Below are positions 19,101-60,473 of a stretch of 64,000 nt of DNA, piece after piece (position 1 is the first letter of the stretch; each line of letters starts with the position of its first letter). Under the pieces are notes generated by a model. The model was not told where the DNA came from and did no database searches. It saw only the letters and a list, made by a program, of their open reading frames with translations. The stretch is taken from contig NC_086376.1 in the NCBI RefSeq assembly GCF_036588685.1, positions 67,435,630 through 67,499,629 of the forward strand, read 5' to 3'. The position numbers were made by a program, and so were the translations under genes. The DNA is from Mytilus trossulus (Eukaryota).

Positions 19101-19365
19101 TGGTTAATAGTCATTGATGTTATGTTTCTATATTAAAAAGGTCAGTATTGGCTAGATGGAATAGATGATGTTGTTGAATCCGAATGGCGCTGGGCATCAA
19201 CATATGGTAAAATAGAGCCAACATTTTGGTACCCTGGAGAACCAAACCAACTCACAACAGAGGAAGTTTTGTATGGAAATACAAAACGCATACCGAGGCC
19301 TTTGGAATGACTAGGGGTGTTCTAAACATGAATATAGTATTTGTGAAAAAGAATTTTCACGGTAA
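16121..19365 (+). pseudogene. C-type lectin B, full-length pseudogene (EPN/WND)
   Basis: Exons 16121-16163, 16487-16584, 18704-18794, 19141-19365 with intact splice sites. Lesions: Cys to Tyr and TAA (18731-18733) in exon 3; +1 frameshift near 19270 and TAG (19312-19314) in exon 4. Confidence 0.88.
16840..17421 (+). mobile_element. Tandem retrozyme-like repeat (about 1.6 units, 363-nt spacing) with two hammerhead motifs, in lectin B intron 2
   Basis: Cores at 16984 (gtgatga, C to G) and 17347 (ctgatga), each followed by gtc..gac-gaaa..cgcgtc. Flanking sequence is directly repeated. Confidence 0.8.
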
Positions 19366-27629: not shown

Positions 27630-28008
27630 GACGTTTCTGGCTAGATGGGATAGATGATGTGACTGAATCTGACATGCGATGGGCGTCAACTTATGGCAAA
27701 ATAGAGCCAATATTTTGGTACCCTGGTCAACCAAGCGATTCTTCAGCTAATGAAGATTGTATGGAAACTTAATAGATGATGTGACTGAATCTGACATGCG
27801 ATGGGCGTCAACTTATGGCAAAATAGAGCCAATATTTTGGTACCCTGGTCAACCAAGCGATTCTTCAGCTAATGAAGATTGTATGGAAACTTATCACATT
27901 ATTAGAGGCCTTTGGAATGACACAGATTGTACTTCACATATGTTTAGTATATGTGAAAAAAAGTTTTATAGAATGACTTTCGTTAAGAAAAGGATCATTT
28001 TGCAATAA
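27630..28008 (+). pseudogene. C-type lectin C: orphan last exon (QPS/WND) with an internal 122-bp tandem duplication
   Basis: Acceptor ctacAG at 27628-27629, then RFWLDGIDDVTES..QPS..EDCMET*. Units 27650-27771 and 27772-27893 look identical and create TAA at 27770-27772. I found no exons 1-3 upstream. Confidence 0.85.
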
Positions 28009-32442: not shown

Positions 32443-32613
32443 ACGTCAACTTTTGGTAAATTAGAGCATATATTTTGGTACCTTGGTGAACTAAACCGGA
32501 GCTAATCAGATAAAGATTGCACGCCAACTTATGCCAACAACAGAGGCCTATGGAATGATGATGATTGTTTTAAACATCAGTTTAGCATGTGCGGATAATA
32601 ATTTACAGAGTGG
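32443..32613 (+). pseudogene. 5'-truncated C-type lectin last-exon relic
   Basis: STFGKLEHIFWYLGELNRS*SDKDCTPTYANNRGLWNDDDCFKHQFSMCG** aligns with exon 4 of lectin D. Confidence 0.85.
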
Positions 32614-33652: not shown

Positions 33653-36368
33653 ATGTTAATGACTATGACGATGTTTGTTCCCTTGTTCTTGTTATCAGCA
33701 AGTAAGTACTTGTTTCAACATAATTAGGTTTACTTATTTATAGATTTGTTCATGTCGTCTTGAACGGATTCACCCGTAGGGTTGAAAGCATAAAAATAGT
33801 CTTTGTCATTGCACCAACACGATCAACCATACTGTGCATATGATATACCACTGTTGTAAGGTACGCTTTATAGATGGCGCTGTGGTACAAAAACCGTATA
33901 GGCCCTTGTTATATCAAAATTGAGTGCTTCTTTTTTGTAATTAATTGGGGGAGTGAAAGTATTGAGCGAATCTCACTCTCAAAGAACGTGGGAACTGTTT
34001 TGTCTTTAATGACAAAAGACCTTCCATTCATTTATTACATGATTCTGAAAAATTCAACGAAGCTTATTTTAGAAATAAGCTAATTTTTTTAGCTCATTCA
34101 TTGTGCTCAATATACACGACACCAATAATATTGTCGTTTTACAAAGAAAATCAGTATTTATCTTCTGTTTAAAAATTGTACAACACAAAATTATTATTTT
34201 GCTTAAAACTTCGAATAGCGACTAAAGTTTATATACTATAATTGATTAATCATTTGCTAATTATCTGCACATAGGCTGTGTTTTATCTGCTTGTCCACCT
34301 GGTTGGTTTGTCGGTTATAATTCATCATGTTATCTTTTTCATCAACGATCGTTATCATGGGTAAAAGCATCGGTAAGTACAATGTATAAAAAAGTAGCCA
34401 TATTTGGCATGATACGGCGCCATCTAAGATCACATTCATTGTTATTATCGGTCGGTCCGTGGCTACGCATATGATATGATTTATCAATTTTTAAGGTTTA
34501 TCAAACTGAAAGGCATTATTTCGCACATGGATAAGGAGTATAATGTGTGGTGTTGTCGTGTTGATAATCCCTTTTTTAATTACTTAAAACTTGCATTAAA
34601 TACTCAAAGTATGGATTCTTCTCATTGTCGAAGGCCTTTAAAAATTACTTTGAATGATAATTTACATATCGCACACTAAACAATTAAGGAGATTCAGACA
34701 ATAGTAAATCCAATTCAAGATAATATATTATGATATATTTGGATGTCCTTCAACTTAAAACTGACAAAAGCATCCTTCTACAGCTTTAAAAACAATTTCA
34801 ACACTGACATTAATTGACGTTAAGATTGAGCATTTAAAATTGTTGTTGACTGCTTTGCTCTATGTTAATTTAAGGTTATTTGGTATTGGAAATGTGGTAT
34901 TTTTATGATTGATTGATATAAAATAGATTTATTTTAAGGGTCTGCGTTAAACACCTATGCTTTGAAAACACTTATGTCCCCTTTACTTGTTGAAAATTGA
35001 ATCATTCACAAATGAATACGATTCTGGAGGTGTGCTGAGATTATAAAATATAGATAATGCATTTAGTAACACTGTTCTGCATAACAAATCTAGCTTTTGC
35101 AGATTAACAAAGCAAATACACACGTATCAATAATTGAAATTGCATTATTTAATTACAGTGTGCAATAAATGAACATGAATTATTGACAGTTAATGGAACT
35201 GAAATAGACAGTTAATTTAAATGATTGTCAATGAGACGACTCTTCCTGTTTTTGTGATCCCTTTGGTTTCAACTTAAGATGGAGAACTTAATCTCTACAG
35301 TCGGTTGGCACGTTATTTTGGTAAAAATATGGCACATTGATTTACATGTGGTACACATTGATGTACATGTGGTACACATTGATGTACACGTGGTACACAT
35401 TGCTGATATACATCTTCATTTTATCTTTGATGGATAGTTGGCGCATCGGAAATCAAATCACATCTCATTATCTTTAAATATAGTGAAAAGTCAAACAAAT
35501 ATGATAGGGAACGGGAGAAACGGGTGAACACTGGTGCCCGTCTTCGCGCAACTATGTATAATCGTCTTTGATTTACTTAATTAAGTATTATAAATGATAA
35601 AATATTGAGAATTATGATATCCTGGAATAGAACAAGCCTCTATGCGACAGAGTTAGAAAGATAGTTAGCATAAATATGCAGAAAATGATCTAATTTATTG
35701 AATATTTTTTACAGCATTACTGTCTTTCATTGGGCGGGCATTTAGCTAGAATTGAATCTGAAACAGAGAAAAATTTAATTCGTGACGAATTAAAGCATTT
35801 GTCTGGTAAGCTATCTTTCTACATGGTAAAATATTTCTTGGACAGAAAGAACAAAGAGAGATAGAAATATTTTGATTAAACTCCATATAACTAAACTGGT
35901 ATACAATGATACTTATATCATGAAATACAGTTTTCAGCTGTGTGTGTTTTGATAATTTATAATTTGGTGAACAAAAAAAAATGTTATGAGCATTACATTT
36001 CTGCATCTTTCGTGATATTACTAAAAAGAAGAAAAAAGATCAACACAAACAACAAAAAACTGAAGAGTTTTAAAATGGCTGAATAATAAAGAGTTCCAAT
36101 GAAAAAGTACAACGTACTTTCATATAATATTTTTTTCTTTGCAGGAGAATATTGGATAGATGGGATAGATGATGTGACTGAATCTGACTGGCGCTGGGCG
36201 TCAACTTATGGCAAAATAGAGCCAACATTTTGGTTACCTGGTGAACCAAATAATGGTTATGGAAATGAAGATTGTATGGAAACTTATAACATCATCAGAG
36301 GTCTTTGGAATGATGAGGATTGTTCTGATCATCAGTTTAGCATTTGCGAAAAAGAATTTGCAGAGTGA
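33653..36368 (+). CDS. C-type lectin D, perlucin-like, secreted, intact, 153 aa (EPN/WND)
   Basis: Exons 33653-33701, 34275-34372, 35715-35805, 36145-36368; GT-AG, phases 1/0/1; 462 nt open. Leader MLMTMTMFVPLFLLSASCVLS (several possible Met starts), six CTLD cysteines, WIDG, EPN, WND. Confidence 0.93.
35330..35403. repeat. Minisatellite, 22-bp unit x about 3
   Basis: tggtacacattgatgtacatg-like unit repeated in lectin D intron 2. Confidence 0.7.
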
Positions 36369-37298
36369 CTTTCATTTAGTACCGTCTCCTATTGAAATAC
36401 ATGCTTTAATTAACCAAACACTTTATAAGAATATGTTTTATCAGAAAACACATTATGAATCTTAAATACACTTTTCACAGATGTGTTCTTCGTCCGTTCA
36501 ATACCCTTTTTGGGGCATCTTGATTTAATTTTAAAAAAAAGGAAAAGAAAAAAAGCAAGGAACAAAAAACTTCTGATTAAATTTTGTGCGTTCGAAGAGC
36601 TTTTTTTTTAATGTTTCCTTCGTGAGAGTTATCATAATGACTCTTCTAGTTTTCATCATAGTTATTGTAAAACAACGTGCTGATAAGGGGCTTTGAAATA
36701 CAAGGCGTCTGTCTGCTGTTGTTGTTCTAGATTATTTGTACGTAGTTGTCTCATTGGCAATCATACCACATTTGCGTATTCTTATCTAGATTTAGTAATC
36801 ATTGATCAGAAATTACAATAACATTATTTTGTTTTGTATATATTTATTAAGTCGGTAATTGCATTTTTTGTGTAATGCTATTAAATTATAATACTTCTTC
36901 ACATTTAAAAATATTTTACATCTTGTAGCTAATTTATATGTCACATGGTCTCTGGGGGAGAGTTGTCTCATTGGCAATCATACACATATTATTCTTGTGT
37001 AGACTGGTCATCATTTATAAGAACTTACAATAAAATTATAATTTTGTTTTGTTCATATTTATTCAGTCGACAATTGCGGTTTTTTTTAATTTCAAATTAC
37101 AAAATTTATTTTTTTCAAATCATTCCAGCACATAATCAAATATTTACTCATTGCCTTATGTATCAGAAAGTCTCAAGTTTATATTTTTTGCCATAGAATA
37201 ACTAGAAATTTACACAGATTTGAATAGTTTACATCTTGTTGCAAGTAAGCACGATATCATCTTGATTAAAAAAGATCGAATTTATGAAAAACAAATCC

Positions 37299-40200
37299 TC
37301 ATGAACGATGTTTATCTATATGTTTCACTAAGTTATCGAAATTGACTGCTTGGTCCAAAGTACCATGAGTATCAACTGATTCTGTACGATTCGTTCGAAT
37401 TTCAGTAGAGTTCCAAGGAATGGGGAATCGATCCGTAATTTTAGGCGCAGGTGAATCTCGAATAATGTCCCGAGCAATCTGCTCGAGATCGGCTTTTGAA
37501 TAGTGAGTATGAACGGATTTTGATTTATGTTTCACTGATCTTTTTGCACGATTCTTAATCAAACCCTACAATAAAAATTATAAACAGATTAGTACATTTT
37601 GATAAACATGCTATATCTATATTAACAATGTGAAACGTATAATAATACATTTGTGACCATTTATACTTTTGCTTTCATTTTAAGAAAAGGATAAAAATTG
37701 TCTTATATTTATTCAAACTGCTGTATTTTTGTAACTAAGACTTTGAATAGTGATACTGATTGATTAAGTGACAGTTGCGTATTGCTGTAATGCCGCCTTT
37801 GTGCAAAAGAATGTATCACTTCAATCTTCAAAATATAAATCAAATATAAAATTAGTTTCAATAATCCTTCACACTTTGTTATGTAAAATAAGATCAACTA
37901 GAAGAATGTTCATAATTGTTTAAAGGGCGATATTGAATGGTGTAATACTGTTATCTAATGGCTGTGGCAATCACAATGGTAAGCATAGCATCAATAGAAA
38001 TGTTATTCAGAGTCGGAAGATTTAAGCCTCTAAAGAGTTGGTCCATATTTAGGATGCAATCAACAGTTTTTTTCTATGACGTCACATTTTGAGGGACCAT
38101 GCATAAGTGACCCTTAGTGGTGGACTGATTAATAAAGATACTTGTATAAAACTAGATATCACTGGAATCAGAATGTTCTCTAGTATAAAGTGAAATAAAA
38201 ATAATGTGTACTTTTAATATATTAAAAACAATCCATCCAATGAACATGGGGAAAAAGGTATAATTTTAACAGAAAAAACTTGAAACCAGGTCATGTGCAC
38301 AGCCATGAAGACATGATCCATGCACAGTTTTCATTATCAAAACTGTATGAAATTTGTAGGTTTTTACCTGGCCTTTCAAAAAAATCTTGTTTCAAGGTAC
38401 GGTTTCCTGCTCCGAAAAGAGCTACAGTGGCTGCAAATAAGTTCTCAATTTTCACTGCCAAAAACAAAAGGATGTTTACACTGTTGTCTCCCCTCAAAAC
38501 ATGTAAAGTTAATATAATTTTTAAATTTATTTCAATCATTCAACCGGTTTTAATTGAAAGCTAATTAACTAATTTTTTCAATCAAACACAAAAAACATGA
38601 TACTTTTGCACCAATTGAGTAAATAAACAGGGGTTTCCCTCCATGGTTATTTTTAGTCGGGGAATAACCCCTAGTTTTTTTTATACGAAACTGTTTATAG
38701 CACCCATAACAGTCATATATTTTTCATTCTGACTGTAGAATGTTACTCTATTCATTACTTAAGCTTAAGATCGAACTTTCTATTTTAAACCATTACATTT
38801 TTGTCGAGCCTTCGACTTTAGTCGAAAAAGCGAGACTAAGCGATCCTACTTTCCGTCGGCGTCGTCGTCGGCGGCGTCCACAAATATTCACTCTGTGGTT
38901 AAAGTTTTTGAAATTTTAATAACTTTCTTAAACTATCCTTGGTTTGAACCAAATTTTGACAGAAGCTTGTTTATGATCATAAGATAGTATCCAGAAGTAA
39001 ATTTTGTAAAAAAATAAATCCATTTTTTCCGTATTTTACTTTTAAATGGACTTAGTTTTTCTGCGGGGAAACATTACATTCACTCTGTGGTTAAAGTTTT
39101 TAAAATTTTAATAACTTTCTTAAACTATCCTGGGTTTGTACCAAACTTGGACAGAAGCTTATTTATGACCATAAGATAGTATCCAGAAGTAAATATTGTA
39201 AAACGATAACTCCATTTTTTCTGTATTTTACTTTTAAATGGACTTAGATTTTCTTCCAGTTAACATTACATACAGTCGGCAGTTTAAGTTTTCAAAACAT
39301 TAATTAGATTCATTAACTATCCTAGATTTTTACCAAACTTGGACAGAAGCTTCTTACAATCAAAAGATAGTATCAAGAGGAATTTTTTTATTGATTTTTT
39401 TCCTCATTTTATGTTGAGCCTGCGATTTACAGCAAAAGTAGGCAAGACACTGGGTTCCGCGGAACCCTTACAAATTTTTCATGAGTTAATGTGATTCAAC
39501 GAGTCAGCGAAAAACTTGCCGTTGTTAAGTCCTGTTGATTTCTCTTGCCACAGTAACCCTATACACAAATTGAGATAGAGAAATATAATTGGAAGTCTAA
39601 AGTTTATCATAAGATTCAGATTTTGTGATGTTTCAACTTAGTTTTGTTAAGCGATTAATTAGTAGTTGTAAATATAAAGGTGACTGTGACAGAACGACAA
39701 ACGAAAGGAAATATAGAGAAACAGACGAACAGACGATAAGGCTGAGAAACGAACGAACAAACGAGATTTCCTTTTTTCACATTGCATTTAGAAAGCGATT
39801 TTACATGTATAATAATGCGTGTATTACAAGTAAGTGGTAAACGAATGCCTAAAAAACTGCAAACAATTTGTAAAAGATGTTTTGTCCTTACCGTTAGTTG
39901 TTTGAAAGTTTGTGGACGAAGATCATAGATTTTACTTCCAATTTTCGGTAAGCTGTCCAACACTTGTATCCCGCCATTCCGTAAATACGTTAAGCTGATA
40001 GGGATTCGAAGTAAATGATTCAGTTTATGTTGTTTGATTCCATTATTAGAGGTTAACATATACTGCTGCAAACATCTGATCTGTTTCAAGGTTCCCATGG
40101 TAAGGAAATTGTCCATGTTTTTGTACGAATAGCAATCCTTTAAAACAACAGGATCATACTCATTCTGAACACGCAAAGCCACTAACAATGGAAAAATGGT

Positions 40201-40793
40201 ACATATATAGAGGACACTTCCCAACAGCATCTAAAGAAACAAATATGAACTATTGAGAGACATAATATAGACAATTACTGTTTAGTGTCTTAAATATCAG
40301 CTGTATTTGTACGAGACTAAGAAACAGGTGTAACGAAGCTTATTATTATTTTTTTCAGAAATCAACACGTCTTAAACGCGGACCGCAATGAGGAGGTCAA
40401 ATTGAATTGTGACGTAAACAAACAGTAATTTGACATAACCGTTTGCTCGCAAAAGAAGCCGGATACCAGGAAAAGATATACTTTAGTAAACGTATATCAC
40501 TTTCTGTTATACTTATAAGTATAATAGAAAAGTCGATTACAGGATTACGTTTGTGAAGTATAAGTCAACGCGCGTCTAGCGTATATATAAAATTTAGTCC
40601 TGGTATCTGTAATGAGTTTATTATCAATAATACACAAAAAGAAATATTAAGATTCGCCAACAAAATACAACACAACGCAAAGACTACCCAGAAAAATCTG
40701 TCATAAAAAAGCAATGACAACAAACACATACAAACACATAATCCAGATAGCCTGATACTATATTTATCCAATACTCACTTTCGATGAACCCAT
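37299..40793 (-). CDS. G1: uncharacterised secreted precursor, 206 aa (signal peptide, two conserved Cys, RAKR site)
   Basis: Exons 40793-40779 (MGSSK, GTGAGT donor), 40230-39892 (GTAAGG donor), 37565-37299 (tgtAG acceptor); all phase 0 and open. The same exon borders are conserved in paralogue G2. Confidence 0.85.
38797..39479 (+). mobile_element. Helentron-type non-autonomous element with internal ~192-bp tandem repeats, in G1 intron 2
   Basis: T-run insertion site, 5' hairpin ttcgac..gtcgaa, cgtcgg microsatellite, repeat units starting 38887 and 39079 plus a degraded third, 3' hairpin gggttccgcggaaccc. Confidence 0.7.
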
Positions 40794-41023
40794 CACAAGT
40801 TATATTTACAACTTTCCACAGGATTTATAGAAAAACGGTTCACCTCGTAATAGTTGGATCCTAGATGTAAATATTTAAATATAAAATCGAATGAAAATGT
40901 TTAAATAACATAATTTAAAAAGAAGAAATTAAAAAAAAAAACTGAAGCAGCTACAAATAATACTACCTTTTTCGATGACCGTACCTTTCTAGTCCTATAA
41001 GATTGTTTGTATCACAGATTGCA

Positions 41024-41036
41024 GGATATATATAGG
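41024..41036 (-). promoter_or_regulatory. Candidate TATA box of G1
   Basis: A (TA)n box is conserved at the equivalent position upstream of G2 (about 54183-54192), inside a ~600-bp conserved upstream block. Confidence 0.35.
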
Positions 41037-42399
41037 GATATAGAACCAAAAACAACTTATTACATCACATGATACTATTATAAGTTAATGCATTGTGTAA
41101 CCTTTTAATGCATAGAGACAAGTTGGACTTTTAAAATTCTATTTTGGACGGCAATTTCCTTGACTCCTCGGGATAAGGTCAAGAATATGCGTTTATATGT
41201 AATCCGGTTGTAAAATTAATGTTGTTTTTTACATGTAAAATTATAAGGAAACATTTAATGTTGTTCCGTGAAAAATCATTTTAACCGTTTGTTTCCTATT
41301 GTATGCTTATGTTTAATCCTGAAAAAATATAACATTATTCTATTTTTGACTACACCTGCTGTCCAACAAGAGTATGGGGAACCCATTACATTTCCCTACA
41401 AACCCTATCTTATTATTAATAACGTTAATAAATTTAAAACTAACTTTTATTCTTTATTGGTCAAAAAGATATTGGACGTGTTATTGTGTTCTCTGGGGAA
41501 GTATGGTTAGCATACACCTCCCGATATTCAAGTAGAGGAAACTACAATTGTTATTGTGTTAATTGTTGTTTTTGGTAGTCCTCAATTTTTCAATATTTCT
41601 TGAAAGTTTCCACGAACTTTCAATTATTCAATTTTATCATGATTTTCCATCATTGCCATTCGTTGATTGTATCTGAATTTTCATCATAATTGGTTTTCAC
41701 ATAATAAGTACAATTAGGACGCACATTGCTTTTTATTGAAATACTTAATTTAAACGATTTACCCTGAAGAGTCACAATTCTTAATGCATATTAGTAATTT
41801 GAGAATCAGAAAAATATTTGGTTGTATTACAAACCCAGGACTTCGCGGGTTCGTGACTGTATCAACTTCGCCTTATTTTTAATATTCGAATTGTTACTTG
41901 AAAAAGTCATACTGATTATAAGGTGCTCAGTTTTAAGTGCTTTCAAAATCTTTCTTTTTGAATCCATCCTGGCTTTCATATTACTACCGGAAACAACTTG
42001 AAGATATTTTTTTTTTTGGTCAATGATTTCATTTAGAAGTGTCAATCCTTGTATAATGGCGATGTTCAGGTGTGAGTATAACCCATGTATCTAACTTATC
42101 AAAAATACACCGTTTGAATGTGCACCTAACAGTCGATTGTGCTGAGAGTATAGATTACTGACCCGAAACTAGTTAGTTAAAATTAATAAAAGATGAAAAT
42201 TACACTTATGGCTTCAAAATCATCTGCAATTCAATTGTTGACGGTCAAGGTAATAAGAAGTTATAATAATAATGTTATAATGTTTTGGAAGAGTCGTCAA
42301 TCTTAAGTTATATTTAGCTGGCAACATAATTTTTTTTTGCCTGGAAGATTCTATTAGGGCTCAACACTAGGTCATATCATCTTCAAAAAAATGAAAAAA

Positions 42400-42735
42400 A
42401 CACGTTTAATAGTTTTAAACGTCCGACGCGCTTTTCTAGAAATTACCTTTATCTGGAACGCTCAAAGCCAAACATTTGAAATCCGAAGATGTATAAGTAC
42501 CGAAACGTTTAAGAGCTATATGATAAAAATACCTAAAATAAATAGTCAAATTCATCTAAAGTCAACTTTGCCTGAGGGAGTTGAAACCTTAATTTCTTAA
42601 TAATTTCATAATTCATAAACGGAAATTTTTGAGAAATGTTTGTTAAATCATGCCAGTACCGAAATACAACTACTGAGCTAACGATACCCTCGGGGACTGA
42701 TAGTCCACCAGCAGAGGTATCGATCCAGTGATGTA
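42400..42735 (-). mobile_element. Decayed retrozyme-like repeat of a related subfamily
   Basis: Shares gataccctcgggga..ccaccagcag..tcga.ccagtg with the copy at 52.3-52.4 kb. Hammerhead boxes are degenerate (cagataa..gaaa). Confidence 0.55.
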
Positions 42736-42923
42736 AGAAATTGAAAACAACGAAGTACTGACTACTGATCTTATTTAATATACTTCATTAACTATTTAAA
42801 AAATATAATTAGAGAATAATCAAATTATGTAATATTACAACCTAAGCCTCTTTGTGACCGAATTTAGGAAATAAGTTTCAAAATAAACGAATAATGGATT
42901 AATTTATTACATGTGTTTAACAT

Positions 42924-45900
42924 CATTACTGTTTTTTATTGGGTGGACATTGAGCTAGAATTGAATCCAAGACAGAGAAAATTTTACTTCGTGTCGAATT
43001 AAAGTACCTGCGAGGTAACTTTATTTTCTGTAGGACTAAATAAAAAGGCAAATAAGGCCTTTGGAAATTAAAAAGAGATTTACTTTCACTACAACCACCA
43101 CTTTCAACGTCGTTTCATGTATTTGACTATATTATTAAACCCATTTTGTTATATTGCTCTGAAATATAGGTAAGTTATATTAAGGTTAAATCAGATGTCT
43201 AACTTGTGTTACTTTGTTAAATAAGCAAGTGTTTTTTTCTCCATTGAACCAACATGTTTTAAACCATATTCTAGAGGTACAAATTCTATTGTTACCGTAA
43301 TGAGCGATCTAGGACGCTACTTTTTAGCTATATATGGATAGATTAAAAAATATAATTAAATATTGGGTTCGAAAAGAAAGGTCTCCGAACTTGTTATTGC
43401 GAAATGCTTATAAATAAAATAAAATTTGCACTATTTATGGACAAATACTTTCTTCACATATTTTCTACATGTGTCAAATATTGTAAATATTATTATTTCG
43501 AAATAATAGATACAAGCCCAACACGTATGAATAAGAATGAAGCTCAACAAGATGGACATTTCTGTTTTTGTCAGATAGATGTATATACAACTTAAGTAGA
43601 ACTTGTGCATTTCACCTGCCAATGAAACGTCAATGTTTTGCTACATAGACTAGACAAGTAAACATACATCCCACACTATCGAAATATATGCCTAGATACA
43701 AAAACGGTCCTCGTATGACATGATACAGTTCCACAGACACTGCTAGAGAACTATGTCGTCTATTAACTTAAGATTTATGTACCCTTCTGTAGCCATTTTT
43801 GTACGAAATTTTCAAACCTCAATTGTATCAAAACTACAGATATAATGAATAATAGAGATAGAACATTTAGTACGTATTCCAAGGGGAAACTTGATGCAAG
43901 GCATTATTTTTTACTGTTTCATTGCATTTGATAGAAAAAGAAGACTTTGTGGAAAATAAATCAACTCGAAAACAACGACCAAGACAGCTTTGAGGCATAC
44001 ATTATTGGTATCGCACAAACATAGAATTGAAACTGACAGAAATGGATAAAAAATCAAACCTAAAGAATTAAAACTTAAATATATTCGAGACATGATTAAT
44101 AAGAATATATATCCAAAATGTCAACTTTTATTATTGATTACGGTAATCCAAAGTTTAAAGATGCACTTGATTATGTTATAATGTGATATGAATCTGGTTT
44201 ATAGGTGCACTCGTTTATGTTATAATGTTATATTATTTATCACTAGTATTACATTCAAGAAAGATATTCCTTTTTTTCACTCATTGCCATATAAAAGAAT
44301 ATAAGTATTATTACATGTATACTATTTTTTTTCTGATAATATAGTGCACTTTTTCAGCATCCAGCTTGCTTTCCGGACATTTGGTTTAAACGTAAACGGG
44401 AATCCACAGTTTGCATCCTGGGCAAATGAGGAAATTGTAAACAGGAAATATTAAGAATAAACAGGTATCAATTTTCAAACAAAATGGTATCGTACATTAT
44501 ATTGGATTAGATTTCAACGTAATTGCTAACGGTACAGACACAAGTGTCTATCCAACTAGAACAAAACACGTTATTGTGTCATTTGAAGAGAAAAATCAAC
44601 ACTTTGACGTTGTAAAAAAAACACACCAAAAAACCGGATTATAATAATTACAATTATATTTTATTCAATAAATGTCAAGCATATGAGTTTAACATTACAC
44701 AATATACAATACATAAAGACAATACTAACAAGTACTTTGTAAAACATAATGGCATTTTATGAGTTTAGCATACTAAGTGTATTATAATAGAAAAATTTGC
44801 TGATATTTGTCAGGAATAACCCATTAAAGCTCTAAAAGAGAGACGGAAGATACCAGAGGGACAGCCAAACTCATTAATCGAAAATAAACTGACAACGCCA
44901 AAGCTAAAAATTAACAAGACAAATAGACAAACAATAGTACACATGGCACAAAATAAAAAATCAATTTGAAAGAATAAACAGCACGAAACCCACCAAAAAC
45001 TAGGGGTGATCTCAGGTGCTACGGAAGGGTAAGCAGATCCTGATTCACATGTGGCACTCTTCGTGTCGCTTATAAGATAAAAGATCCGGTAAAAAGTCTA
45101 ATTCGGTAGGTCACATTCATAAAAGGGAAGGGGATTGTAGTTACTGCGTAAGGGGCATGTCCGATATCATTTGTGAAACGGTTATTCCATAACGGTCAAC
45201 CAACTCGTGATGACGTCCGTTAAATTTACGAAGTGATGATTTCAACTTCAACATTTGGAACTCTTGATTTAATAGCTTTCTTGTGACCAACAACTCTCTA
45301 TCAAGAAAATCATGATAGGAAATGCAAGCACGGGAATATCGTATCAATTGGGAGATATATACAACTATGCAGGTGCTGCTGGAATGTTGCTACTTAGAAA
45401 TGGAGATTTCACAATTGGAAAAGTGAAATCATCTTTTATGTAGTAAAGTTTTGTTTTCAATCGACTCTCATTGTCAATCTCTAGATGCAAGTCAAGATAT
45501 CACACCGACTTAACTGTATTTGTTGTATCCTTTATCTCTAGTTCAATGGGATAGATGCGTTCAACATAGTCACCATTTTGAATTATTTAGTGAAAGAACA
45601 TCATCTATATAGCGAAAAGTAGAGGTAAAGGATATTGCTAACTTCTCATCTGTCTTCCAAGAAGTTCCTGTATGAAGTCAGCCTCATTATAATTAAGAAA
45701 CAAGTCGGCAAGAAGAGGGGCACATCCTCCAATCTAATATGTTTTCAATCAAGAAATCAAGCATCTTGATAATGTCAGTTTCAGAGAATTTTTTGTTTCA
45801 ATCAGAATGATCCTTTACAAAGAAGGACCTTTCCAATGGGGTCTATTCATGTAAACGGCTTACATTTTCGACATACAAAAAAAACCAACACACATATTAA

Positions 45901-47573
45901 TATGACAAATTGCTTCATATTGAAAATAATAAAATAATAAGTGTAAAAATATAAAAAGAAGTCTGATGATGACGCACTATAACTTTTGGTAAAGTACTCT
46001 TTGAGGGTAGTTTTAAATTCCTTAATTATCATTTTTAACACTATTTGGCAACATTAGAAAATGCCTCTACCAAGTCAGGAATATGACAGTTGTCCATTCG
46101 TTTGATGTGTTTTATCTTTTAATTTTGTAATTTGACTTTCCGTATCCTCGGAGTTCAGTATTTTTGTGAATCTACTTTTTGTAATAGTATATAACAAACT
46201 GTTACAAGAGTTGCTATTTATTCACCCAGTAAACATTGATGAACTATCACCTAGCAAAACTATCGCAGTAATGCTCCAACATATGACCTGAATATGTATA
46301 CTGTTTATTCTGTATATTGGAAATATCTACATTGTTACATGTTATAATTCTGACCTCACTTTCTTACATCTGTTTTATTTAAAGTGACATGATAGTGCAT
46401 CATAAGCCTATTTTTCTAGATGAATAATGATATTAATTCTCAATGCGCATTATGTTGTATATATTCCGGATTCAATCTAACAAACTATGTATTCATTCTT
46501 ATAGGAGAGCTATCCTAATTCAAAGATTAAATCAAATTTCCGTGAGCAAGTATTAGGTAGATTGTTAAGGGTCTCTACTGCGTTAGGAAAACATAAAAAA
46601 ATCAATCCTTTTATAGAGATTGGACTGTAACCTATAATCTTAAGTTCGTGTGAACCTTCATTTGCACCAAAGGTCAAAAGTCAATGAGTGCAAAAAAAAA
46701 AAATACACCGCAATTTCAAGCTTACAATCGATAAGAGTTTGCTGGATATAACTGTGTATAACATGTTCCTTTCAAGGAGCTCAACATTATATACACGAAG
46801 CTAAAAAAATGTCCGACCGTCTATGCAAAAGTTACAACGAGATTGTTCTTGAAAGTATTAAGCTTGTGTGAAATCTTTTAAAAGATAACATATATCAACC
46901 TACTATGAATGAAAAAAAATATCAGTATTTTAATACCTTCAATTTGAAAATCTTTAAAGCGTACATTTCAAATTTATGGCCCCCGAAAATGGGTTTGGTG
47001 AGGTCATAAAGTAGAAAAAATATAATGTCTAATAAGATAAGGTTGTCGTCTATCAAATGAAAGGTCATGATGTGTACATTTCAAATATCAAATTCTTCTC
47101 CTCTAAAAAAAAAAAAAAGAGTTAAACGGGGTTAATTAGTGCAAAAAATCCTGAATATGGCGTTGTCGCATATCAAATAATCGGTCATCAAATCTACATT
47201 ACACATATCATACCTCCGATCTCAAAAAAATAGGTGGATGTGTTCATTTTAAAAGTGTAAAAACTGAACATTTTCAGTAAATCAAATGAAAGGTTATATA
47301 GAGTGTATAACAAAAACATCACTTTTACAAACAATTGAGTTATTAGTTTTCGTAATTTTCCTTTGTCATGAGATTATAAATAGAATGGTTAATCAGACTG
47401 AATCTGAAAGGCGATGGACGTCAAACTATGGGAATGAAGAGCCAACACTTTTGTTTCCTAGTGAATCATATAATAATTTAGGAATTTTATATCATCATTA
47501 TAGGCCTTTGCAATAATGAAGATTATTCTAAACATCAGATTAGAATATGCAAAAAAGAATTATTACGGAGTGA
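42924..47573 (+). pseudogene. C-type lectin E, partial decayed pseudogene (exons 3 and 4 only)
   Basis: Exon 3 at 42924-43014 reads HYCFLLGGH*ARIESKTEKILLRVELKYLR, with the acceptor mutated (AG to AT) and TGA at 42951-42953. Exon 4 relic at about 47370-47573 (TESERRWTSNYG..EPTL) is frameshifted. Confidence 0.8.
44832..45835 (-). mobile_element. Penelope-like fragment, family 2
   Basis: RT motifs CAPLLADLFL, FRYIDDVLSLN, IRYSRACISYHDF..GRHHELVDRY on the - strand, plus the family tail. Confidence 0.82.
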
Positions 47574-47861
47574 CTTTCGTTAAGAAGCAGATCATGTTAA
47601 AAAAAATACTGCTTTAAAAAACATAGTGTATTGGTATTTGTTTTATTATCAGAAAACAATCTCATGTACTCATTAAGGTCTAATGTGTTAGTTGCTAGTC
47701 CGCTGCTTTCATTTTGTTTTAAAGCAATGGATGAACATACCTTTATTATGTTTTATGTTTCCGAGGAGCTTTTCTGTATTTTCTTTCATAAGAATTTTTA
47801 TCAAGGTTGTTTTGATTCTCGTCTATTTCAGTCTTCTTAAATTATTTGTAAATATAAAAAA

Positions 47862-48133
47862 AAAAGAAGATGTGGTATGATTGCCAATGAGACAGCTATC
47901 CACAAAAGACCAAAATGACACAAACATTAACAACTATAGGTCACCATACGGCCTTCAACAATGAGCAAATCCCAGCCATAAAAGGATCCGATAAGACAAC
48001 GTAAAACAATTCAAACGAGAAAACTAAAGGCCTTATTTATATAAAAAAAAATGAACGAAAAACAAATATGTAACACATAAACAAACGACAACCCCTGAAT
48101 AACAGGCTCCTGACTTGGGACAGGCACATACAT
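47862..48133 (+). repeat. Abundant dispersed repeat (gatgtggtatgattgccaatgagaca family)
   Basis: Related copies at about 4220-4470 (-), 51180-51410 (+), 62195-62460 (-), plus several fragments. Confidence 0.7.
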
Positions 48134-49217
48134 GTTTTGTTGTTTCCAAATGGGACGCATTGCGGGGGTATTGAAAATCGGTTGTTCGTCTTTTCGTCTG
48201 TGCGTCTCTGTGTTCTTCTGTCCTGTCTTGTAAGTGCTCTTATTTGTATAATTCTTGTCAGATTTTTATTTTAAATAAATTTAAAATTACAACATAGCTC
48301 CACAACAGTTCTTTCAGAATTTCTAATTCTCCAAAACTTATTGGTCTATAAGAAATAAAAGAAAAAGTGTCAAAAACTTGTTTAATTTTTCATATATGAA
48401 AGTTTTCTAATGAATCCAATTGCATGATTTCATTTTTAACAGTACATGTATAATGGGAATAAAACTTGCGAAACCAAATAAACATTAAATTGCAATTCGA
48501 GTGTCGATACTAATGTTTTTCTTTGAGAGTTTGATAAAAAAAAAATTATCTTGCTCAGATTTCAAAAGATGTGATTAACTTCATTTGACCTTGATGTCAT
48601 TGGCCTTTTGGAGACTAGGAATTGTTTTTCCATATAACACAGTCAAATTGAATCATCAAATACAGCATATTTCAGCAACTTTATCATTGCAATTTCCCAG
48701 CGTTTCTTCTAAGCGTGATTCTGAATAACAATTGATTAGTAGCTTACCAAAAGTATGTAATCTACTATATGGATATGACATTTACATATATGCCTATACT
48801 ATTAGTCTATTTCGTTGGATTCATTTTCCTATATAGTGAAGTGTTTGCATTGGTTTAACAAAATGTTCTTAAATCGACGAGGTACGTTTTGATGTGGTTA
48901 GTACATGTATCAAAAAAGAGTAATTTAACAATGCAACTTTTCAAAAAGGTTCATGTGGAGTATATACTTCCCCGCGACAGCAACCCGATGACAACAACTA
49001 CCAAATCACATTTACACCTTACAGTCTTCTTATGTTCTTTTACTAGGACTCATTTAATATAAAGAGAATAGTGCATAGCCTTTTCTGTCATCGTTGTCAT
49101 AGTTTTAAAAAGCAAATAAAAGTATACATTAATAAATAAACATATAAACTTATAAAAAGGTTGATGTGGAGTATATACTTCCCCGCGACAGCAACCCGAT
49201 GACAATAACTATCAAAT

Positions 49218-50394
49218 GAAATTGAGAAAGGAAATGGTGAATATGTCAAAGCGACAACCATCCGACCATAGAGCAGACAACAGCCGAAGGCAACCAATGG
49301 GTCTTCAATGTAGCGAGAAATTCCCTCACCCGTAGGTGTCCTTCAGCTGGCCCCTAAAAATATGCATATAAATAGTACAGTGATAATGGACGTCATACTA
49401 AACTCCGAATTATACACAAGAAACTAAAATTTAAAATCATACAAGACTAACAAAGGCCAGAGGCTCCTGACTTGGGACAGGCGCAAAATTGCGGCGGGGT
49501 TAAACATGTTTATGAGATCTCAACCCTCCCCCTATACCTCTAGCCAATGTAGAAAAGTAAAAGAATAACAATACGCACATTAAAATTCAGTTCAAGAGAA
49601 GTACGAGTCCGATGTCAAAAGATGTAACAAAAGAAAATAAATAAAAAGACAATAATACATAAATAACAACAGACTACTAGCAGTTAACTGACATGCCAGC
49701 TCCAGACCTCAATTAAACTGATTGAAAGATTATGTGTTAATGATATGAATATCAGGCATAATCCCTCCCTTTAGGGGTTTAGTATCATACTATCATAAAA
49801 TATATGAGAAGAACATAACCCGTGTCATGCCAACAACTGTTTTTTTTTAGAAATAAATGTGTTTAGTTCCGATGCAAAGACCCTATCAGTGAATCAATAT
49901 TAAAGCCAAAATATGCAATCTTTAATGACCTGACAACAGTATCGTAACTATATCCCCTTCTAATAAGTCTATTTAAAGGTTTTTTCTTAGTTTCTGAGGA
50001 GAATACTGACATTTTTGTGCTTTATAAAGAATATTTCCATAAAAAATTGGATGTGAAATACCTGAACGTATAAGATGTCTGCATGTTGAGTTATATTTTC
50101 GAATTATTTCCTTATACCGGTGATAAAATTTAGTAAATGTTTTGACCAGTTTGTGATATCGAAAACCCTGGTGTAATAATTTTTCAGTAATACATAAATA
50201 AAATCTAATACGTTGTTACATACACGAGCGAATCGTACAAGTTGAGATATATAAACACCATAAGATGGTGACAAGGGAACGTCACCATCTAAAAATGGAT
50301 AATTAACAATAGGAAATGAAAAATCATCTCTTTTATCATAAATTTTTGTATTTAGCTTCCCGTTTATGATATAGATATCAAGATCGAGGATCAA
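49218..50394 (-). mobile_element. 5'-truncated Penelope-like element, family 1
   Basis: LDLDIYIINGKLNTKIYDKRDDFSFPIVNYPFLDGDVPLSPSYGVYISQLVRFARVC; closely similar to 6992-8090. Confidence 0.82.
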
Positions 50395-50870
50395 AGCTTA
50401 TTTAACCCTTACAGTCTTCAACATATTGTGTTCGTTTTCCTAGGACTCATTTAATATGAAGAGATGAAGAGATGAAGAGAATAGTGCATAGCCTTTTCTG
50501 TCATTGTTGTCATAGTTTAATTAGCAAATAAAAGTATACATTAATAAATGACAATTTTTTTCTGTAATTTTATCTCATAATACTCTTCTTTTTAAAATCA
50601 TCCAGGTAGTAAAATAGTAACTACATAATTAGCCATTGCCTTAAGCATGATAATATATTAAAATAATGGTATCTGTCTCAGCACATTTAGAAATATACAC
50701 GGATATAAATGTTTACATCTTGTCGCAAGTAATCACAATATCAACTTGACGATCGGATAATTGAAATCCTCACGAGGGATGTTTATTTATATGTGACAGT
50801 TGTCAGTTTGGTCCAAAGAACTAGAGGTTCATGTATTATCCGAGGCGTTACGAATCGTTCTTGTGTCATA

Positions 50871-53800
50871 TTAGTTCTTCCAATGAGTCGGAAATAGTTG
50901 ACCAAGAATAGGCGAATGTGAAATTTCCGGAACACTGTCAGATAGTGGATTTCGTGTTTGACCGGATTTCAATGTATGTCTCTTTGACCTTTTGACGCGA
51001 TTCTTTATTAAACCCTACAATAAAAAAATATAAACAGATTAATAAATTTTCAAATGAAGTCCGGTATCAACAATCTGAAACATATAGTTGTATATTCATG
51101 ATCATCAATATTTTTTTCATTTTGGGTTTAAGGGGTGTCAACTACAAGATTTGAAAAAATATTATTATATAAGAAATGGAACATGTGGTATGATTGCCAA
51201 TGAGACAATTTTCCACAAGAGACCAACAAGAAACATAGATAAACAACTTTAGGTCCCCGTACGGCCGTCATTAACGAGCCAAGTCCATATCGCATGGTCA
51301 GCTATAAAAGGCCCTTAAATGACAATGTAAAACAATTCAAACGAGAAAACTAACGGCCTTATTTATGTACAAAAATGAACAAAAAACAAATATGTAACAC
51401 AATAACAATCATGAAAGAAAGTAAAGTAGTAGAGTAGTGAAACGATAATTCGACGTTAATTATAATAGTAGTCATGTGACATTCAATTTACCACCTTAGC
51501 TAATTTAAGAGATTGGTTACGCATGAATCAGTCGTGTTCAGTTATCAAAAGGAAAACAATGTTACATTTTTGAAGAACACATAGACTCCTCTCAAAATGG
51601 CTGGATCCGCCCCTGGACTTGGCAACAACGGTTATTGTAAATTGGGTGTAACATTGAAAATGAAACAAGGGTAAACCATCTGATTGACTTATTCGATCCA
51701 TAAAAACTCATTCTTATATAATAGATAAGAACAATAAGTAACATATATTTTTAACCTATTATATGAAATAAAACAGACCTAGAAAAATCCAACCGCACGA
51801 ATTAATTATCTATTTGTATCTACAGGTATATGCAAGTTTATATCGGGCTATATGACTGTCGATAGTCTTTGGAGGTCACCTAGATGGTTAAATAGATTGA
51901 GACTTGACAAAATCCATTGGTGGCTTTCGGCTGTTCTCCGTTCTTTGGTCGGGTTGTTGTCTCTTTGACACATACACAATTTCAATACTCAATTTTATAA
52001 AATACACAGGAAATGCTAAAATTTAACATATTATCGATTAACTCATCATAGATACAAGGATTAAATTTTATACTAATTATACCAGACGCGCGTTTCGTCT
52101 ACAAAAGACTCATCAGTGACGTTCGGGTCCTTTTATTAAACGTTAAAAAAAAAGGACAAATAAAGCATGAAGTTGAAGAGCACGGAGGACCATAATACCT
52201 AAAAGTTTTGTTAAATACATCCAAGGTAATCTATTCCTGAGGTAGAAAAGCCGTAGTATTCCAAAAATTCAAAATTTCGTAAACAGGTAATTTATAAATA
52301 TAACCATTTCAATGATAATTCATGTCAGCACAGAAGTGCTGACTAATGGGCTGGTGATACCCTCGGGGAATTAAAACTCTACCAGCAGTGGCATCGACCC
52401 AGTGTTTGTAAATTAATTCATCATAGATACCAGGATTAAATTTTGTATTTATGCCAGACGCGCACATCTATTGTAACTTGTAACGTTTATTCTAACCTCT
52501 TTATGTTTGGATATACGTTTTAGTATTTTGGTGAAATCGGTGAACATGGGACTGACAGATTACAGTACTTTATTAGTGATCAAAATTGACTTTTCATGAT
52601 GATCCAATTCTCTGCAATTGACATTGTAGATAAATAAAAACAACTTATAGGACGATTTTGAAAGCGTACTGAAATTATTTAATGACTGAGGTAATCGCAA
52701 TTGTCAACACATATCGGCAGCAAAAGTCTTCCGCGTCAGAAGATGTTCACTTCTAAAGAGTTGTTCCAGAATATATATAGTGATATTATTTTTGCATTTT
52801 GACTGTAGAATGTCAAAGTATACTAAGTTAATCATGTGAAATTCCCAATAAGTTTAGTGTTTAATAAGAAGTAGCGAATATAAAGATGTGACAGAACGAC
52901 AAACGAACAGAAAGACGGTGAAAACAGAACAACAGACGGCCATACAGGATTTCTCATTCTGTCTGTGTCACTGCATTGACAAAGAGGTGGAACATGTATA
53001 CTAGTAATGTATAATGATGCGTGTAATACAATTAAGTGGAAAGCGAATGCCGTAATGCCTTAGTCAGTTGAAACACATTTTTAAAAGATATTTTTGCCTT
53101 ACCGTTAGGTGTTTGAACGTTTCTGGACGAAAGTTATAGATTTTCCTTTCACTCATTGGTAAGATGTCCAACATCTGTTTCCTGCCATTTTGTGAATACG
53201 TCATGCTGACAGGGATTCGAAGTAAATCATTCAGTTTATGTTGGATGATACCATTTTTTGAGGTTAACATATACTGCTGCAAACATCTGATCTGTTCCAA
53301 TGTTCCAATGGTTAGGAAATTGTCCATATTTTCGTACGAATAGCAATCTTTTAGAACAACAGGAACGAACTCATTCTGGGCATGCACAATCACCAACAAT
53401 ATCAGATTGATACATACACAGATAGTTCTCATCATAATCTAAAAAAATCAAATAAGAAACCATTGAGAGGTATAGATATGTCAGTACTACATTAAATAGG
53501 GATATTAGGACTTGCTAACAAACAATGCAACATACCATATCGGCCACCAACACTAAGACTCCAAATAAAAAGTAATACAATGCATTGATTGATTGATTGA
53601 TTACTGGTGTTTAAACGCCACTTTAAAGCACCGCATTTAGGCTATTTCGTGGCGGTCAGTTTTTATTTATGGAGAAAGCCGGAGTGCACGGAGAAAACCA
53701 CCAACCTTCGAAAGGAAAACTGACAATCCTAGTCAATTGAGATTTGAGTCACGTCCACCCGCAGGAGCGGGGTTCGAAATCACAACCTCAGTGTTGACTG

Positions 53801-53960
53801 GCTAGTGATTACAGTAGTAACTACTTAGACCACTCGGCCACCGAGGCCTCCTTACAATGCAATGACAAACAACACATACAAACACATAACATTGTTACAA
53901 ACACATGGTCTATACTACCTGACTGTATATAAATTCAATACTCACTTTCGATGTTCCCAT
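50871..53960 (-). CDS. G2: paralogue of G1, 164 aa, C-terminally shortened (possibly a pseudogene)
   Basis: Exons 53960-53946 (MGTSK), 53438-53103, 51014-50871 (GLIKNRVKRSKRHTLKS..FPTHWKN*). Homology to the G1 tail continues past the TAA to about 50770, with another stop and a frameshift. Confidence 0.75.
52039..52463 (-). mobile_element. Retrozyme-like monomer (372-nt spacing) with an intact hammerhead core, in G2 intron 2, sense to G2
   Basis: Reverse complement of 52079-52122 is acgtca-CTGATGA-gtcttttgtagac-GAAA-cgcgcg-TC-tggtat. A partial second motif (ccagacgcgc) is at 52454. Confidence 0.82.
53585..53852 (-). mobile_element. tRNA-derived SINE (V-SINE-like core) in G2 intron 1
   Basis: A box tggccgagtgg, B-box-like tttcgaaccc, core ggttttctccgtgcactccggctttctcc, (TCAA)n tail, 9-bp TSD tacaatgca at 53576 and 53853. 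Confidence 0.85.
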
Positions 53961-54819
53961 CGCAAGTTATATTTACAAACCTTTCCACAAGGTTTACAGA
54001 AAAACGAATAATCAATTGAAATAAATGAACATGTTAGAACTACACAATTTGAAAAAAGTACATTAAAAATAACTGAAATATACAACCTGTAACAGCTGAA
54101 AAAAATACTACCTTTGACGATGACTGTACCTTTCTAATATCAGAAGTATTAAGATATTTATTGTTTATATCACAGATTGCAGTATATATATGGGGATAGT
54201 AGAACCATAAACAACTTAATTACGTCACATGATACAACTATAAGTTAATGTATGGTGTAACCTTTTAATGCATAGAGACAGATTACACTTTTAAAATTCT
54301 ATTTAGGACGGCAATTTCCTTGATTCCTCAGGATAAGGTCAAGAATATGCGTTTATATCAAAATACGGTAGTAAAATTAATGGTGTCCTTCCATGTCAAA
54401 ATGTAAGGAAATATTTGTTTCGTATTTTTTGTTTAAGAAATATAACATTATTCTATTTGACTACACCTGTCCAACCAGTTTAAACTACATTCCTACAAAT
54501 CATACAACGTAATAAATTTGAAACTCACTTTTTGTTATTTATTGTTCAATCAGATATTGTACGTGTTGTCGTGCTAAGCATACACCTCTCGTTATTCAAA
54601 GTAAAGGACACTTTGACAAATTCGAAAAATACTCGCATATTCTAATTCATCACTGCCAAGTTTCTGACGTGGTTTTTAAGCAGCTATATGTTACTATATT
54701 ACGACCTTCAACAATAAAATATACCAAGCTTATAATTTAATACGCCAGACGCGCGATTCGTCTACATAAGACTCACTAGTGAAGCTCAGATCGAAATAGT
54801 CAAAGCCAAACAAGTACAA

Positions 54820-56068: not shown

Positions 56069-57847
56069 AAACTAGAGGCTCTAAAGAGCCTGTGTCGCTC
56101 ACCTTGGTCTATGTGCATATTAAACAAAGGACACAAATGGATTCATGACAAAATTGTATTTTGGTGATGGTGATGTGTTTGAAGTTCTTACTTTACTGAA
56201 CGATTTTGCTTCTTACAATTATATCTATCATGAACTTTGCCCATTAGTAACAGAGAACTATATTTGGTAAAAATTTACATAAATTTACCAAATTAATGAA
56301 AATTGTTAAAAATTGACTATAAAAGGCAATAACTCCTTAAGGGGTCAATTGACCATTTAGGTCATGTTGACTTATTTGTAGATCTTACTTTTCTGAACAT
56401 TATTGCTGTTTACAGTTTATCGCTATCTATAATAGTATTCAAGATAACCAAAAACGGCAAAATTTCTTTAAAAATTACCAATTGGAGGGCAGCAACCCAA
56501 CAACCAGTTGTCCAATTCATCTGAAAAATTCAGGGCAGATAGATATTGACCTGAATAACAATTTAACTTCTTGTCAGATTTGCTCTAGATGCTTTGGTTT
56601 CATAGTTATAAGCAAAAAACTGCATTTTACCCCTATGTTCTATTTTTAGCCGTGGCGGCCATCTTGGTTGAATGGCCAGGTCATCGGACACATTTTTCAA
56701 ACTAGATACCCCAAAGATGATTGTGGCCTAGTAGTTTCAGTGGAGATTTTGTAAAAGATTACTTAGATTTATGAAAAATGGTTAAAAATTGACTATAAAG
56801 GGCAATAACTCCTAAAGGGGTCAACTGACCATTTTGGTCATGTTGACTTATTTGTAGATCTTACTTTGCTGAACATTATTGCTGTTTACAATTTATCTCT
56901 ATCTATAATAATATTCAAGATAATAACCAAAAACAGCAAAATTTCCTCAAAATTACCAATTCAGGGGCAGCAACCCAACAACCGATTGACCAATTCATCT
57001 GAAAATTTCAGGGCAGATAGTTCTTGACCTGATAAACATTTTTATCCCATGTCAGATTTCCTCAAAATGCTTTGGTTTTTGAGTTATAAGCCAAAAACTG
57101 CATTTTACCCCTATGTTCTATTTTTAGCGGTGGCGGCCATCTTGGTTGGTTGACCAGGTCACGCCACACATTTTTTAAACTAAATACCCCAAAGATGATT
57201 GTGGCCAAGTTTGGATTAATTTGGCCAAGTGGTTTCAGAGGAGAAGATTTTTGTAAAAGATTACTTTAATTAACGAAAAATGGTTAAAAATTGACTATAA
57301 AGGGTAATAACTCCTAAACGGGTCAACTGACCATTTTGGTCATGTTGACTTATTTGTAGATCTTACTTTGCTGAACATTATTGCTGTTTACAGTTTATCT
57401 CTAACTATAATAATATTCAAGATAATAACCAAAAACAGCAAAATTTCTTCAAAATTACCAATTCAGGGGCAGCAACCCAACAACCGATTGACCGATTCAT
57501 CTGAAAATTTCAGGGCAGATAGATCTTGACCTGATAAACATTTTTACCCGATGTCAGATTTGCTCTAAATGCTTTGGTTTTTGAGTTATAAGCCAAAAAC
57601 TGCATTTTACCCCTATGTTCTATTTTTAGCCGTGGCGGCCATCTTGGTTGGTTGACCGGGTCACGCCACACATTTTTTAAACTAGATACCCTAATGATGA
57701 TTGTGGCCAAGTTTGGTTTGATTTGGCCCAGTAGTTTCAGAGGAGAAGATTTTTGTAAAAGTTAACGACGACGGACGACGACGGACGACGGACGCCAAGT
57801 GATGAGAAAAGCTCACTTGGCCCTTCGGGCCAGGTGAGCTAAAAAAA
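56069..57847 (-). mobile_element. Helentron-type non-autonomous element with three ~480-500-bp internal tandem repeats
   Basis: Units start at 56313, 56789 and 57291. gacg microsatellite at about 57766-57795. Terminal hairpins ggctctaaagagcc and gctcacttggcccttcgggccaggtgagc; A-run flanks. Confidence 0.78.
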
Positions 57848-60026: not shown

Positions 60027-60473
60027 TAGAATCATATGCAAAACAGTGTGGCTGTGGCCATTGATTGACGTCCTAAATTATCCCATTGACTGGGACAGAT
60101 TATGTGAACTTTTGTCTGTAACGACCACTGCTCACTATGTACTTGTTAAAGACACTTAAACTGCGGGGTTACCAAAGGTTCTCAATACCTAAATAAAGTA
60201 ATTCGAAAAATTAATCATGAATAACACGATGTTATATGATTTATATCAAGAATATAAATCAAAACATAAAGGTTATTCCTGATTAATTTTTCGAATTATT
60301 TCATTATTAAGGCGTTAAGAACCTTTGGTGACCCTACAGTTTAAATTCTTTGATAAGTAAGTATACTGAGCAGTGTCGTTACAGACAAACGTTCACATAA
60401 TCTTTCCCAGTCATTGGATGAATTAAGGACGTCAATCAATGGCCACAAACACACTGTTTTGAATATGATTCTA
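60027..60473. mobile_element. Fold-back MITE (~447 bp, arms of about 200 bp)
   Basis: tagaatcatatgcaaaacagtgtg..gtggccattgattgacgtcct is mirrored by aggacgtcaatcaatggccac..cacactgttttgaatatgattcta; TA at both ends. Confidence 0.8.

Follow-up and report, generated by a model that had tools for sequence, protein, structure and literature searches.

What do two genes of the mussel Mytilus trossulus encode that fit no named protein family, and where could such proteins have come from? The genes, G1 and G2, lie on the minus strand of a 64,000-nucleotide (nt) stretch of contig NC_086376.1 (positions 67,435,630 to 67,499,629; hereafter the window, within which all coordinates are counted). The analysis places them in an apparently undescribed Mytilus family of precursors that are very probably secreted and cut by a convertase, and suggests that the signal and pro-region of these precursors may well descend from the N-terminal leader of a tyrosinase.

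A Mytilus family of probable secreted precursors

A preliminary description of this locus, made from the sequence alone, had presented G1 and G2 as minus-strand paralogues with three exons and phase-0 introns, and the exon ends and splice sites bear this out. G1 encodes 206 amino acids (aa) in exons 40793–40779, 40230–39892 and 37565–37299, G2 encodes 164 aa in exons 53960–53946, 53438–53103 and 51014–50871, and both introns of each gene have GT donors and AG acceptors in phase 0. Every motif quoted in that description was recovered at its position in the two genes. The hydrophobic leader is likewise present in both, as judged by hydropathy only (Kyte-Doolittle 11-residue peak of 2.67 in G1 and 3.32 in G2). 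Behind it lies a pro-region of 101 aa with exactly two cysteines, 20 residues apart (C38 and C58 in G1), followed by R-x-K-R, the consensus of furin-type convertases, and by a C-terminal tail.

The comparisons that follow were made over 12 rows, namely G1, G2 and ten relatives numbered with the prefix P. Between G1 and G2 the pro-region is identical at 76 of 101 residues, and with a ratio of nonsynonymous to synonymous substitution (dN/dS) of 0.28 (binomial p = 0.0003) it is under purifying selection. Its length stays within 100–103 aa and both cysteines are kept in all ten rows that have a full N-terminus. R-x-K-R stands at the aligned site in 10 of the 12 rows; the M. galloprovincialis short forms P0004 and P0012 read PVKR there and carry RSKR three residues later, so that a furin-type site survives in all 12, in keeping with the conservation first proposed. 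The motif occurs 27 times in 127,996 six-frame residues, which gives a chance expectation of ~0.04 per 206-aa protein. Overall, hydropathy and motif make it very likely that a secreted, convertase-cut precursor is real. The original notion of a secreted prepro-protein with a conserved convertase site is thus supported, but its pro-region is probably not wholly new, having its Cys motif and layout in common with mussel tyrosinase N-termini.

The family is larger than the two members originally assumed. Searches with exon 2 confirmed 2 of 83 candidates and 6 of 8 candidates as relatives, and phmmer against 1.84 billion representatives returned 4 matches at E up to 0.001. Within the protein collections searched, all relatives come from Mytilus (four species). 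The sole match outside the genus, the catfish repeat protein P0010 (E = 1.6e-5), was rejected as a 29-residue match inside repeats and excluded from all alignments, and a T6SS_VasJ match on it was disregarded. The members are XP_063431443, XP_071168421-3, VDI51343/4, CAC5426344/5, CAG2195210, OPL32777, VDI01257 and XP_063443347, all automatic, uncharacterised gene models with no name or function; RefSeq models exist in two species, one of them with three isoforms. Consecutive accessions, on contigs of equal length, suggest that M. galloprovincialis and M. coruscus have the tandem pair in common, and M. trossulus itself carries on another contig a 45% identical paralogue of 261 aa, P0009 (XP_063443347).

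The view that these genes belong to no recognised family was supported. No Pfam family fits the G1/G2 exons or the relatives and NCBIfam gave no usable match to the family (weak matches below the cut-off were ignored in both), the Protein Data Bank (PDB) sequences gave 0 matches at E = 10, and neither exon 2 nor P0009 had a usable match in the Atlas. Pattern matches numbered 230 in metagenome, 75 in viral and 146 in prokaryote contigs, and none was confirmed as a relative. AlphaFold2 models from 10-row alignments reached a predicted local distance difference test score (pLDDT) of 35.9 (205 aa) and 44.5 (113 aa). In the literature, accessions, motifs and keywords led to no description of the family, although the proteins may be listed in proteome tables of subscription journals. 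Taken together, the results indicate a Mytilus precursor family that is real and apparently undescribed.

Likeness to mussel tyrosinase leaders

In molluscs, tyrosinases open with a signal, which is followed by a leader containing Cys and by R-x-K-R. In the available excerpts of PMC11667028, three full M. edulis tyrosinase N-termini have P-x-x-L-x-x-C separated from C-[IV]-x-x-Y-[LM] by 21, 21 or 19 residues, with R-x-K-R following 46, 41 or 44 residues further on (counted by eye), ahead of the catalytic domain. Two Perna fragments, in excerpts of PMC6508894, have R-x-K-R at that place, one with C-V-x-x-Y-L, and agree as far as they reach. G1 and G2 both read P-V-V-L-K-D-C, 19 residues, C-L-Q-Q-Y-M. 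As a pattern, P-x-x-L-x-x-C, 19–21 residues, C-[ILV]-x-x-Y-[LM] occurs just after the signal in 7 of the 12 rows, G1 and G2 included, and two of the five misses are models without an N-terminus. Four sets of 200,000 shuffles each gave 0 occurrences of the combined pattern, and the six frames of the window match it only at G1 and G2.

The family has in common with secreted tyrosinases of M. edulis (PMC11667028) and Perna viridis (PMC6508894), so far as the excerpts extend, the signal, P-x-x-L-x-x-C, a second Cys 19–21 residues on with hydrophobic-x-x-Y-[LM], and the closing R-x-K-R. In contrast to them, its span from the second Cys to the cut is ~25 residues longer, it has only two Cys, it lacks both the tyrosinase domain (PF00264) and the copper-site His pattern, and a tail of 36–141 aa stands in place of the enzyme. 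PF00264 was found neither in the G1/G2 exons nor in the relatives (0 of 10) nor in the minus-strand frames of the window (0 of 124). The copper sites of tyrosinase are H-x8-H-x8-H (CuA) and H-x3-H-x21-H (CuB) according to the part of PMC7045039 available; these His sets are absent from the 12 rows, some of which hold isolated H-x3-H or H-x8-H pairs, and the tails are too short. Splicing of exon 2 on to further tyrosinase exons was rejected within the window, where no minus-strand frame has a tyrosinase domain (frames under 52 aa were outside the Pfam scan). By eye only, the helix of the tail may resemble the first one in the tyrosinase domain, a likeness of which no use was made.

Several observations weigh against a tyrosinase origin. 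The pattern was drawn up post hoc with both sets in view and with [IV] widened to [ILV], its strict form occurring in 0 of 12 rows, and the comparison covers 3 of the 17 mussel tyrosinases of PMC11667028, from passages picked by terms that included KRQ and KRS. The second Cys lies 68–71 residues from the cut in the family and 41–46 in the tyrosinases (46, 41, 44 and 45 by eye in the excerpts), and the three M. edulis leaders contain additional Cys. Neither half of the pattern is matched by P0009, the most distant paralogue. None of the 4 phmmer matches is a tyrosinase, and 8,000 candidates of 476–2000 aa yielded no match to the family profile. Cleavage of the tyrosinase leader is not described in the portions of the papers examined ("cleav" occurs 0 times), and the family motifs were not found in the available supplements of byssus, shell or tyrosinase papers (PMC11667028, PMC6508894, PMC13022425, PMC4517812, PMC5911496, PMC7971044, PMC9168380). 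Setting these points against the common motif and layout, we favour descent of the signal and pro part from a tyrosinase leader, with modest confidence.

Two other kinds of mussel precursor invite comparison. Like MgCRP-I as presented in the available part of PMC4558851, the family is restricted to Mytilus, has a pre-pro region that is conserved, duplicated genes, and a dibasic site at the start of the last exon; MgCRP-I differs in its ~15-aa pro-region, six-Cys mature peptide and phase 1 and 2 introns, where the present family has 101 aa, a Cys-free tail and phase 0. Like the myticalins, in the excerpt of PMC5577615, it would yield a secreted, convertase-cut, Cys-free peptide and its first exon is mostly untranslated. 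Myticalins, however, have a cationic Pro/Arg-rich mature peptide before KR, an anionic extension after it and a second intron in phase 1, so that the two differ in order and charge. An identity as tyrosinase, MgCRP-I, myticalin or C-type lectin was ruled out, the defining features of each being missing.

Gene models, tail classes and surroundings

The features of the two genes and of the lectin exons beside them are as follows.

34262..36362, plus strand: C-type lectin gene that converges on G1, of which the first and last exons were seen (Pfam match, exon survey)
37063..37110, minus strand: G1 3' untranslated region (UTR) with poly(A)-signal-like hexamers (sequence match only)
37299..37565, minus strand: G1 exon 3, with the end of the pro-region, RAKR (probable cut before 37538) and a long tail of 79 aa whose start is rich in His and which has an amphipathic helix, a DSPAP...W block and two N-x-S/T sites (splice sites, motifs)
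39892..40230, minus strand: G1 exon 2, encoding the signal peptide and the greater part of the pro-region, with the Cys motif from 40152 and the second Cys at 40074 (splice sites, motif positions)
40779..40793, minus strand: G1 15-nt coding exon (MGSSK), optional (splice sites; M. edulis isoform X3 starts MGTSK)
40967..41034, minus strand: G1 upstream region, with a TATA-like run at 41034–41028, an alternative first-exon end and donors after 40985 and 40967 (matches N-termini of M. edulis isoforms X1/X2; conserved with G2)
47356..47658, plus strand: copy of the last lectin exon, frameshifted, co-duplicated with G2 (self-comparison)
50625..50870, minus strand: G2 3' UTR, still aligning with the end of the G1 coding tail and the G1 3' UTR (alignment to G1)
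50871..51014, minus strand: G2 exon 3, with RVKR and RSKR sites, a 38-aa short tail without helix and an early stop (sequence comparison)
53103..53438, minus strand: G2 exon 2, encoding the signal peptide and the pro-region, with the Cys motif from 53363 and the second Cys at 53285 (identical to XP_063431443)
53946..53960, minus strand: G2 15-nt coding exon (MGTSK), optional (splice sites; M. edulis isoforms)
54130..54190, minus strand: G2 upstream TATA-like run and alternative first-exon donor (sequence comparison with G1)

The 15-nt first coding exon of the preliminary description is present in both genes and finds an independent model in M. edulis RefSeq isoform X3; it is, however, optional, since M. 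edulis X1 and X2 take an upstream exon instead, the donor region of which was found in both G1 and G2. In G1 this upstream exon has no in-frame ATG and is therefore probably untranslated. Exon 2 itself supplies a Met and the complete hydrophobic leader, so that either first exon would give an identical secreted product. The end of the upstream exon (40984–40960, minus strand) resembles the 15-nt exon and its donor (40793–40770), as if one donor region had been duplicated. The M. trossulus RefSeq protein XP_063431443 is identical to G2 from residue 7 on. No protein returned by the searches carries the exon 2 of G1 (best 85%), and G1 may therefore be unannotated. A 192-bp unit is repeated in 2.6 copies at 38886–39378, inside the second intron of G1.

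The tail had been described as fast-diverging and Cys-free. It is Cys-free in all 12 rows. Between G1 and G2 it is identical at 11 of 38 residues, and its dN/dS is 1.4 (29 codons), where the pro-region has 0.28 (Fisher p = 0.048). However, most tails belong to one of two conserved classes, and the faster change between G1 and G2 reflects the two classes to which they belong and not hypervariability. The 79-aa long class comprises G1, P0011, P0007 and P0002, together with the cut forms P0003 and P0008. Its features are a start rich in His, an amphipathic helix (moment 0.89) that holds acidic residues, the DSPAP...W block and N-x-S/T sites; its four full tails are 65–96% identical pairwise across species, that of G1 matching M. 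edulis and M. coruscus long tails at 63, 61 and 51 of 79 residues. The short class (36–38 aa; G2, P0004, P0012 and P0006) is without the helix and stops just after a Trp, and the G2 tail is identical to M. galloprovincialis short tails at 32 and 31 of 37 residues. An explanation of the G2 tail as a dead exon was rejected, since short tails are 84–86% identical in M. galloprovincialis and occur in similar form in M. coruscus. In 11 of the 12 rows the tail carries a net charge of 0 to +3.

Conservation of the long tail extends to the distant paralogue P0009, whose extended tail (141 aa) is basic and contains the helix-DSPAP unit twice, with 18 Arg, 13 Lys and 12 Tyr, a net charge of +15 and Arg/Gly/Tyr-rich ends. 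We take this composition to be like that of mussel matrix proteins, and infer that P0009 is the best candidate for a matrix peptide bearing 3,4-dihydroxyphenylalanine (DOPA).

Trees of 11 rows (P0005 was left out as identical to G2) placed pro-regions and tails differently. P0011 groups with P0004 and P0012 in the pro-region tree (95/92), whereas in the tail tree G2, P0004 and P0012 form a clade (100/99) with P0011 outside it. Consistent with this, the pro-region of P0011 is identical to that of P0004 at 95 of 101 residues and its tail to that of P0007 at 76 of 79, and the diagnostic sites split likewise. Such a mosaic could stem from recombination in the second intron, from read-through splicing or from a chimeric gene model; as it stands in these models, it points to exon exchange among paralogues as a possible way in which the family varies its cargo.

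The surroundings of the genes are less informative than they had seemed. The plus strand of the window carries ten C-type lectin exon pieces, several of them broken, and this neighbourhood had been read as a hint of an immune, mucus or shell role. Self-comparison of the window showed that a block at ~35.6–41.5 kilobases (kb) is repeated at 42.8–54.6 kb. Because the last lectin exon lies in the repeated block, G1 and G2 arose by tandem duplication together with a piece of lectin gene, and their position therefore says little about function; the hint is weak, the lectin exon beside G2 being a frameshifted co-duplicate. Lectin_C (PF00059) has no match in the G1/G2 exons or the relatives, whereas the neighbours match it.

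The lectin array itself shows turnover, with copies of the last exon that carry stops or frameshifts at 19140–19359, 32443–32592 and 47397–47562 (plus strand). At 27650–27893 an exact 122-bp tandem duplication (100%) shifts the frame of a lectin last exon and is either recent or an assembly artefact. On the minus strand inside the array, a Methyltransf_FA exon (20734–21246, E = 2.9e-16) is followed by a PAN_1 exon (19870–20091, E = 1.8e-4), probably one gene with PAN and FAMeT domains. Elsewhere, a 228-codon open frame with a helical look and a Cys cluster runs to the window end (63315–63998, plus strand; no Pfam match above the cut-off). An imperfect palindrome of ~450 bp (60027–60473, 82% self-match) and smaller ones at 10048–10314, 11724–11874, 15010–15139, 29837–29950 and 30953–31068 are possibly non-autonomous transposons. 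At 56291–57761 a ~475-bp unit is repeated head to tail about three times, at 88–90% identity. A 1.1-kb dispersed repeat (86%) at 6986–8091 and 49210–50341 has no Pfam match above the cut-off, and its frames presumably resemble retroelement reverse-transcriptase ends.

A proposed propeptide without its enzyme

We propose that the N-terminal leader of a secreted mussel tyrosinase was kept while the copper-enzyme domain was lost and a short peptide took its place. The precursor would enter the secretory pathway, its pro-region would close one disulphide and escort the cargo as it would an enzyme, and a furin-type convertase would cut after R-x-K-R; the freed His/Lys/Arg-containing peptide would then work in the matrix that a tanning tissue secretes (byssus, periostracum or shell edge). 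Taken as a whole, this reading, in which a tyrosinase-type propeptide delivers a non-enzyme peptide whose tail acts in secreted matrix, falls slightly short of an even chance. Tissue and peptide role are its weakest steps, and a matrix role for the tail is held a little more tentatively still. More speculative again is a wider proposal: the leader of molluscan tyrosinases, for which Pfam gave no match here, would be a portable module for secretion and folding, detached in Mytilus, and exchange of a phase-0 last exon would let it carry non-enzyme peptides of at least three classes into tanned secretions, or else the detached leader would be a free tyrosinase regulator.

It is also conceivable, though rather improbable, that the genes encode an independent orphan precursor that frees an immune or mucosal effector peptide, and that the likeness to tyrosinases is convergence on a signal, a Cys pair and a furin site. 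No search links the family to tyrosinase, the G1–G2 tails change at a dN/dS of 1.4 (29 codons) against 0.28 (Fisher p = 0.048), a conserved pre-pro part with a variable mature part is the layout of MgCRP-I, the genes sit among C-type lectin genes, and the long tail has an amphipathic helix (moment 0.89). Yet the charge of 0 to +3 in 11 of 12 tails and the acidic residues within the helix fit such a peptide poorly, tails are conserved across species within each class, the family matches neither myticalins nor MgCRP-I as these are defined, and the lectin beside G2 is a decayed co-duplicate.

Slightly less probable still is that the pro-region is itself the product, a free propeptide of tyrosinase type acting in trans on true tyrosinases, which it would bind, escort or silence, with the tail as a dispensable spacer. 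This would account for a pro-region fixed in length and in both Cys beside tails that range from 36 to 141 aa, for G2-type tails that have no helix and stop early, and for the P0003 tail, which ends in unrelated residues. It sits badly with long tails that are as conserved between species as the pro-region (63 of 79 against 79 of 101 residues for G1 and P0011), and with the doubled helix-DSPAP unit of P0009, which suggests that the tail unit has a use. We give little credence to young or decaying duplicates that are barely expressed or functionless: the absence of a returned protein with the G1 exon 2 (best 85%) and the broken lectin copies nearby would fit, but frames and splice sites are intact, the pro-region dN/dS is 0.28, and there are RefSeq models in two species (three isoforms in one) and relatives in four Mytilus species.

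Mussels have many unnamed secreted families, so that this one is in itself of modest interest. The role of the tyrosinase leader is not addressed in the available parts of the papers examined. If the link to tyrosinase is true, it would give a lineage-restricted secreted protein a traceable origin and would offer a natural enzyme-free leader with which to ask what the leader does in byssus and shell tanning. The family may thus show how mussels build new secreted proteins from the leader of an enzyme.

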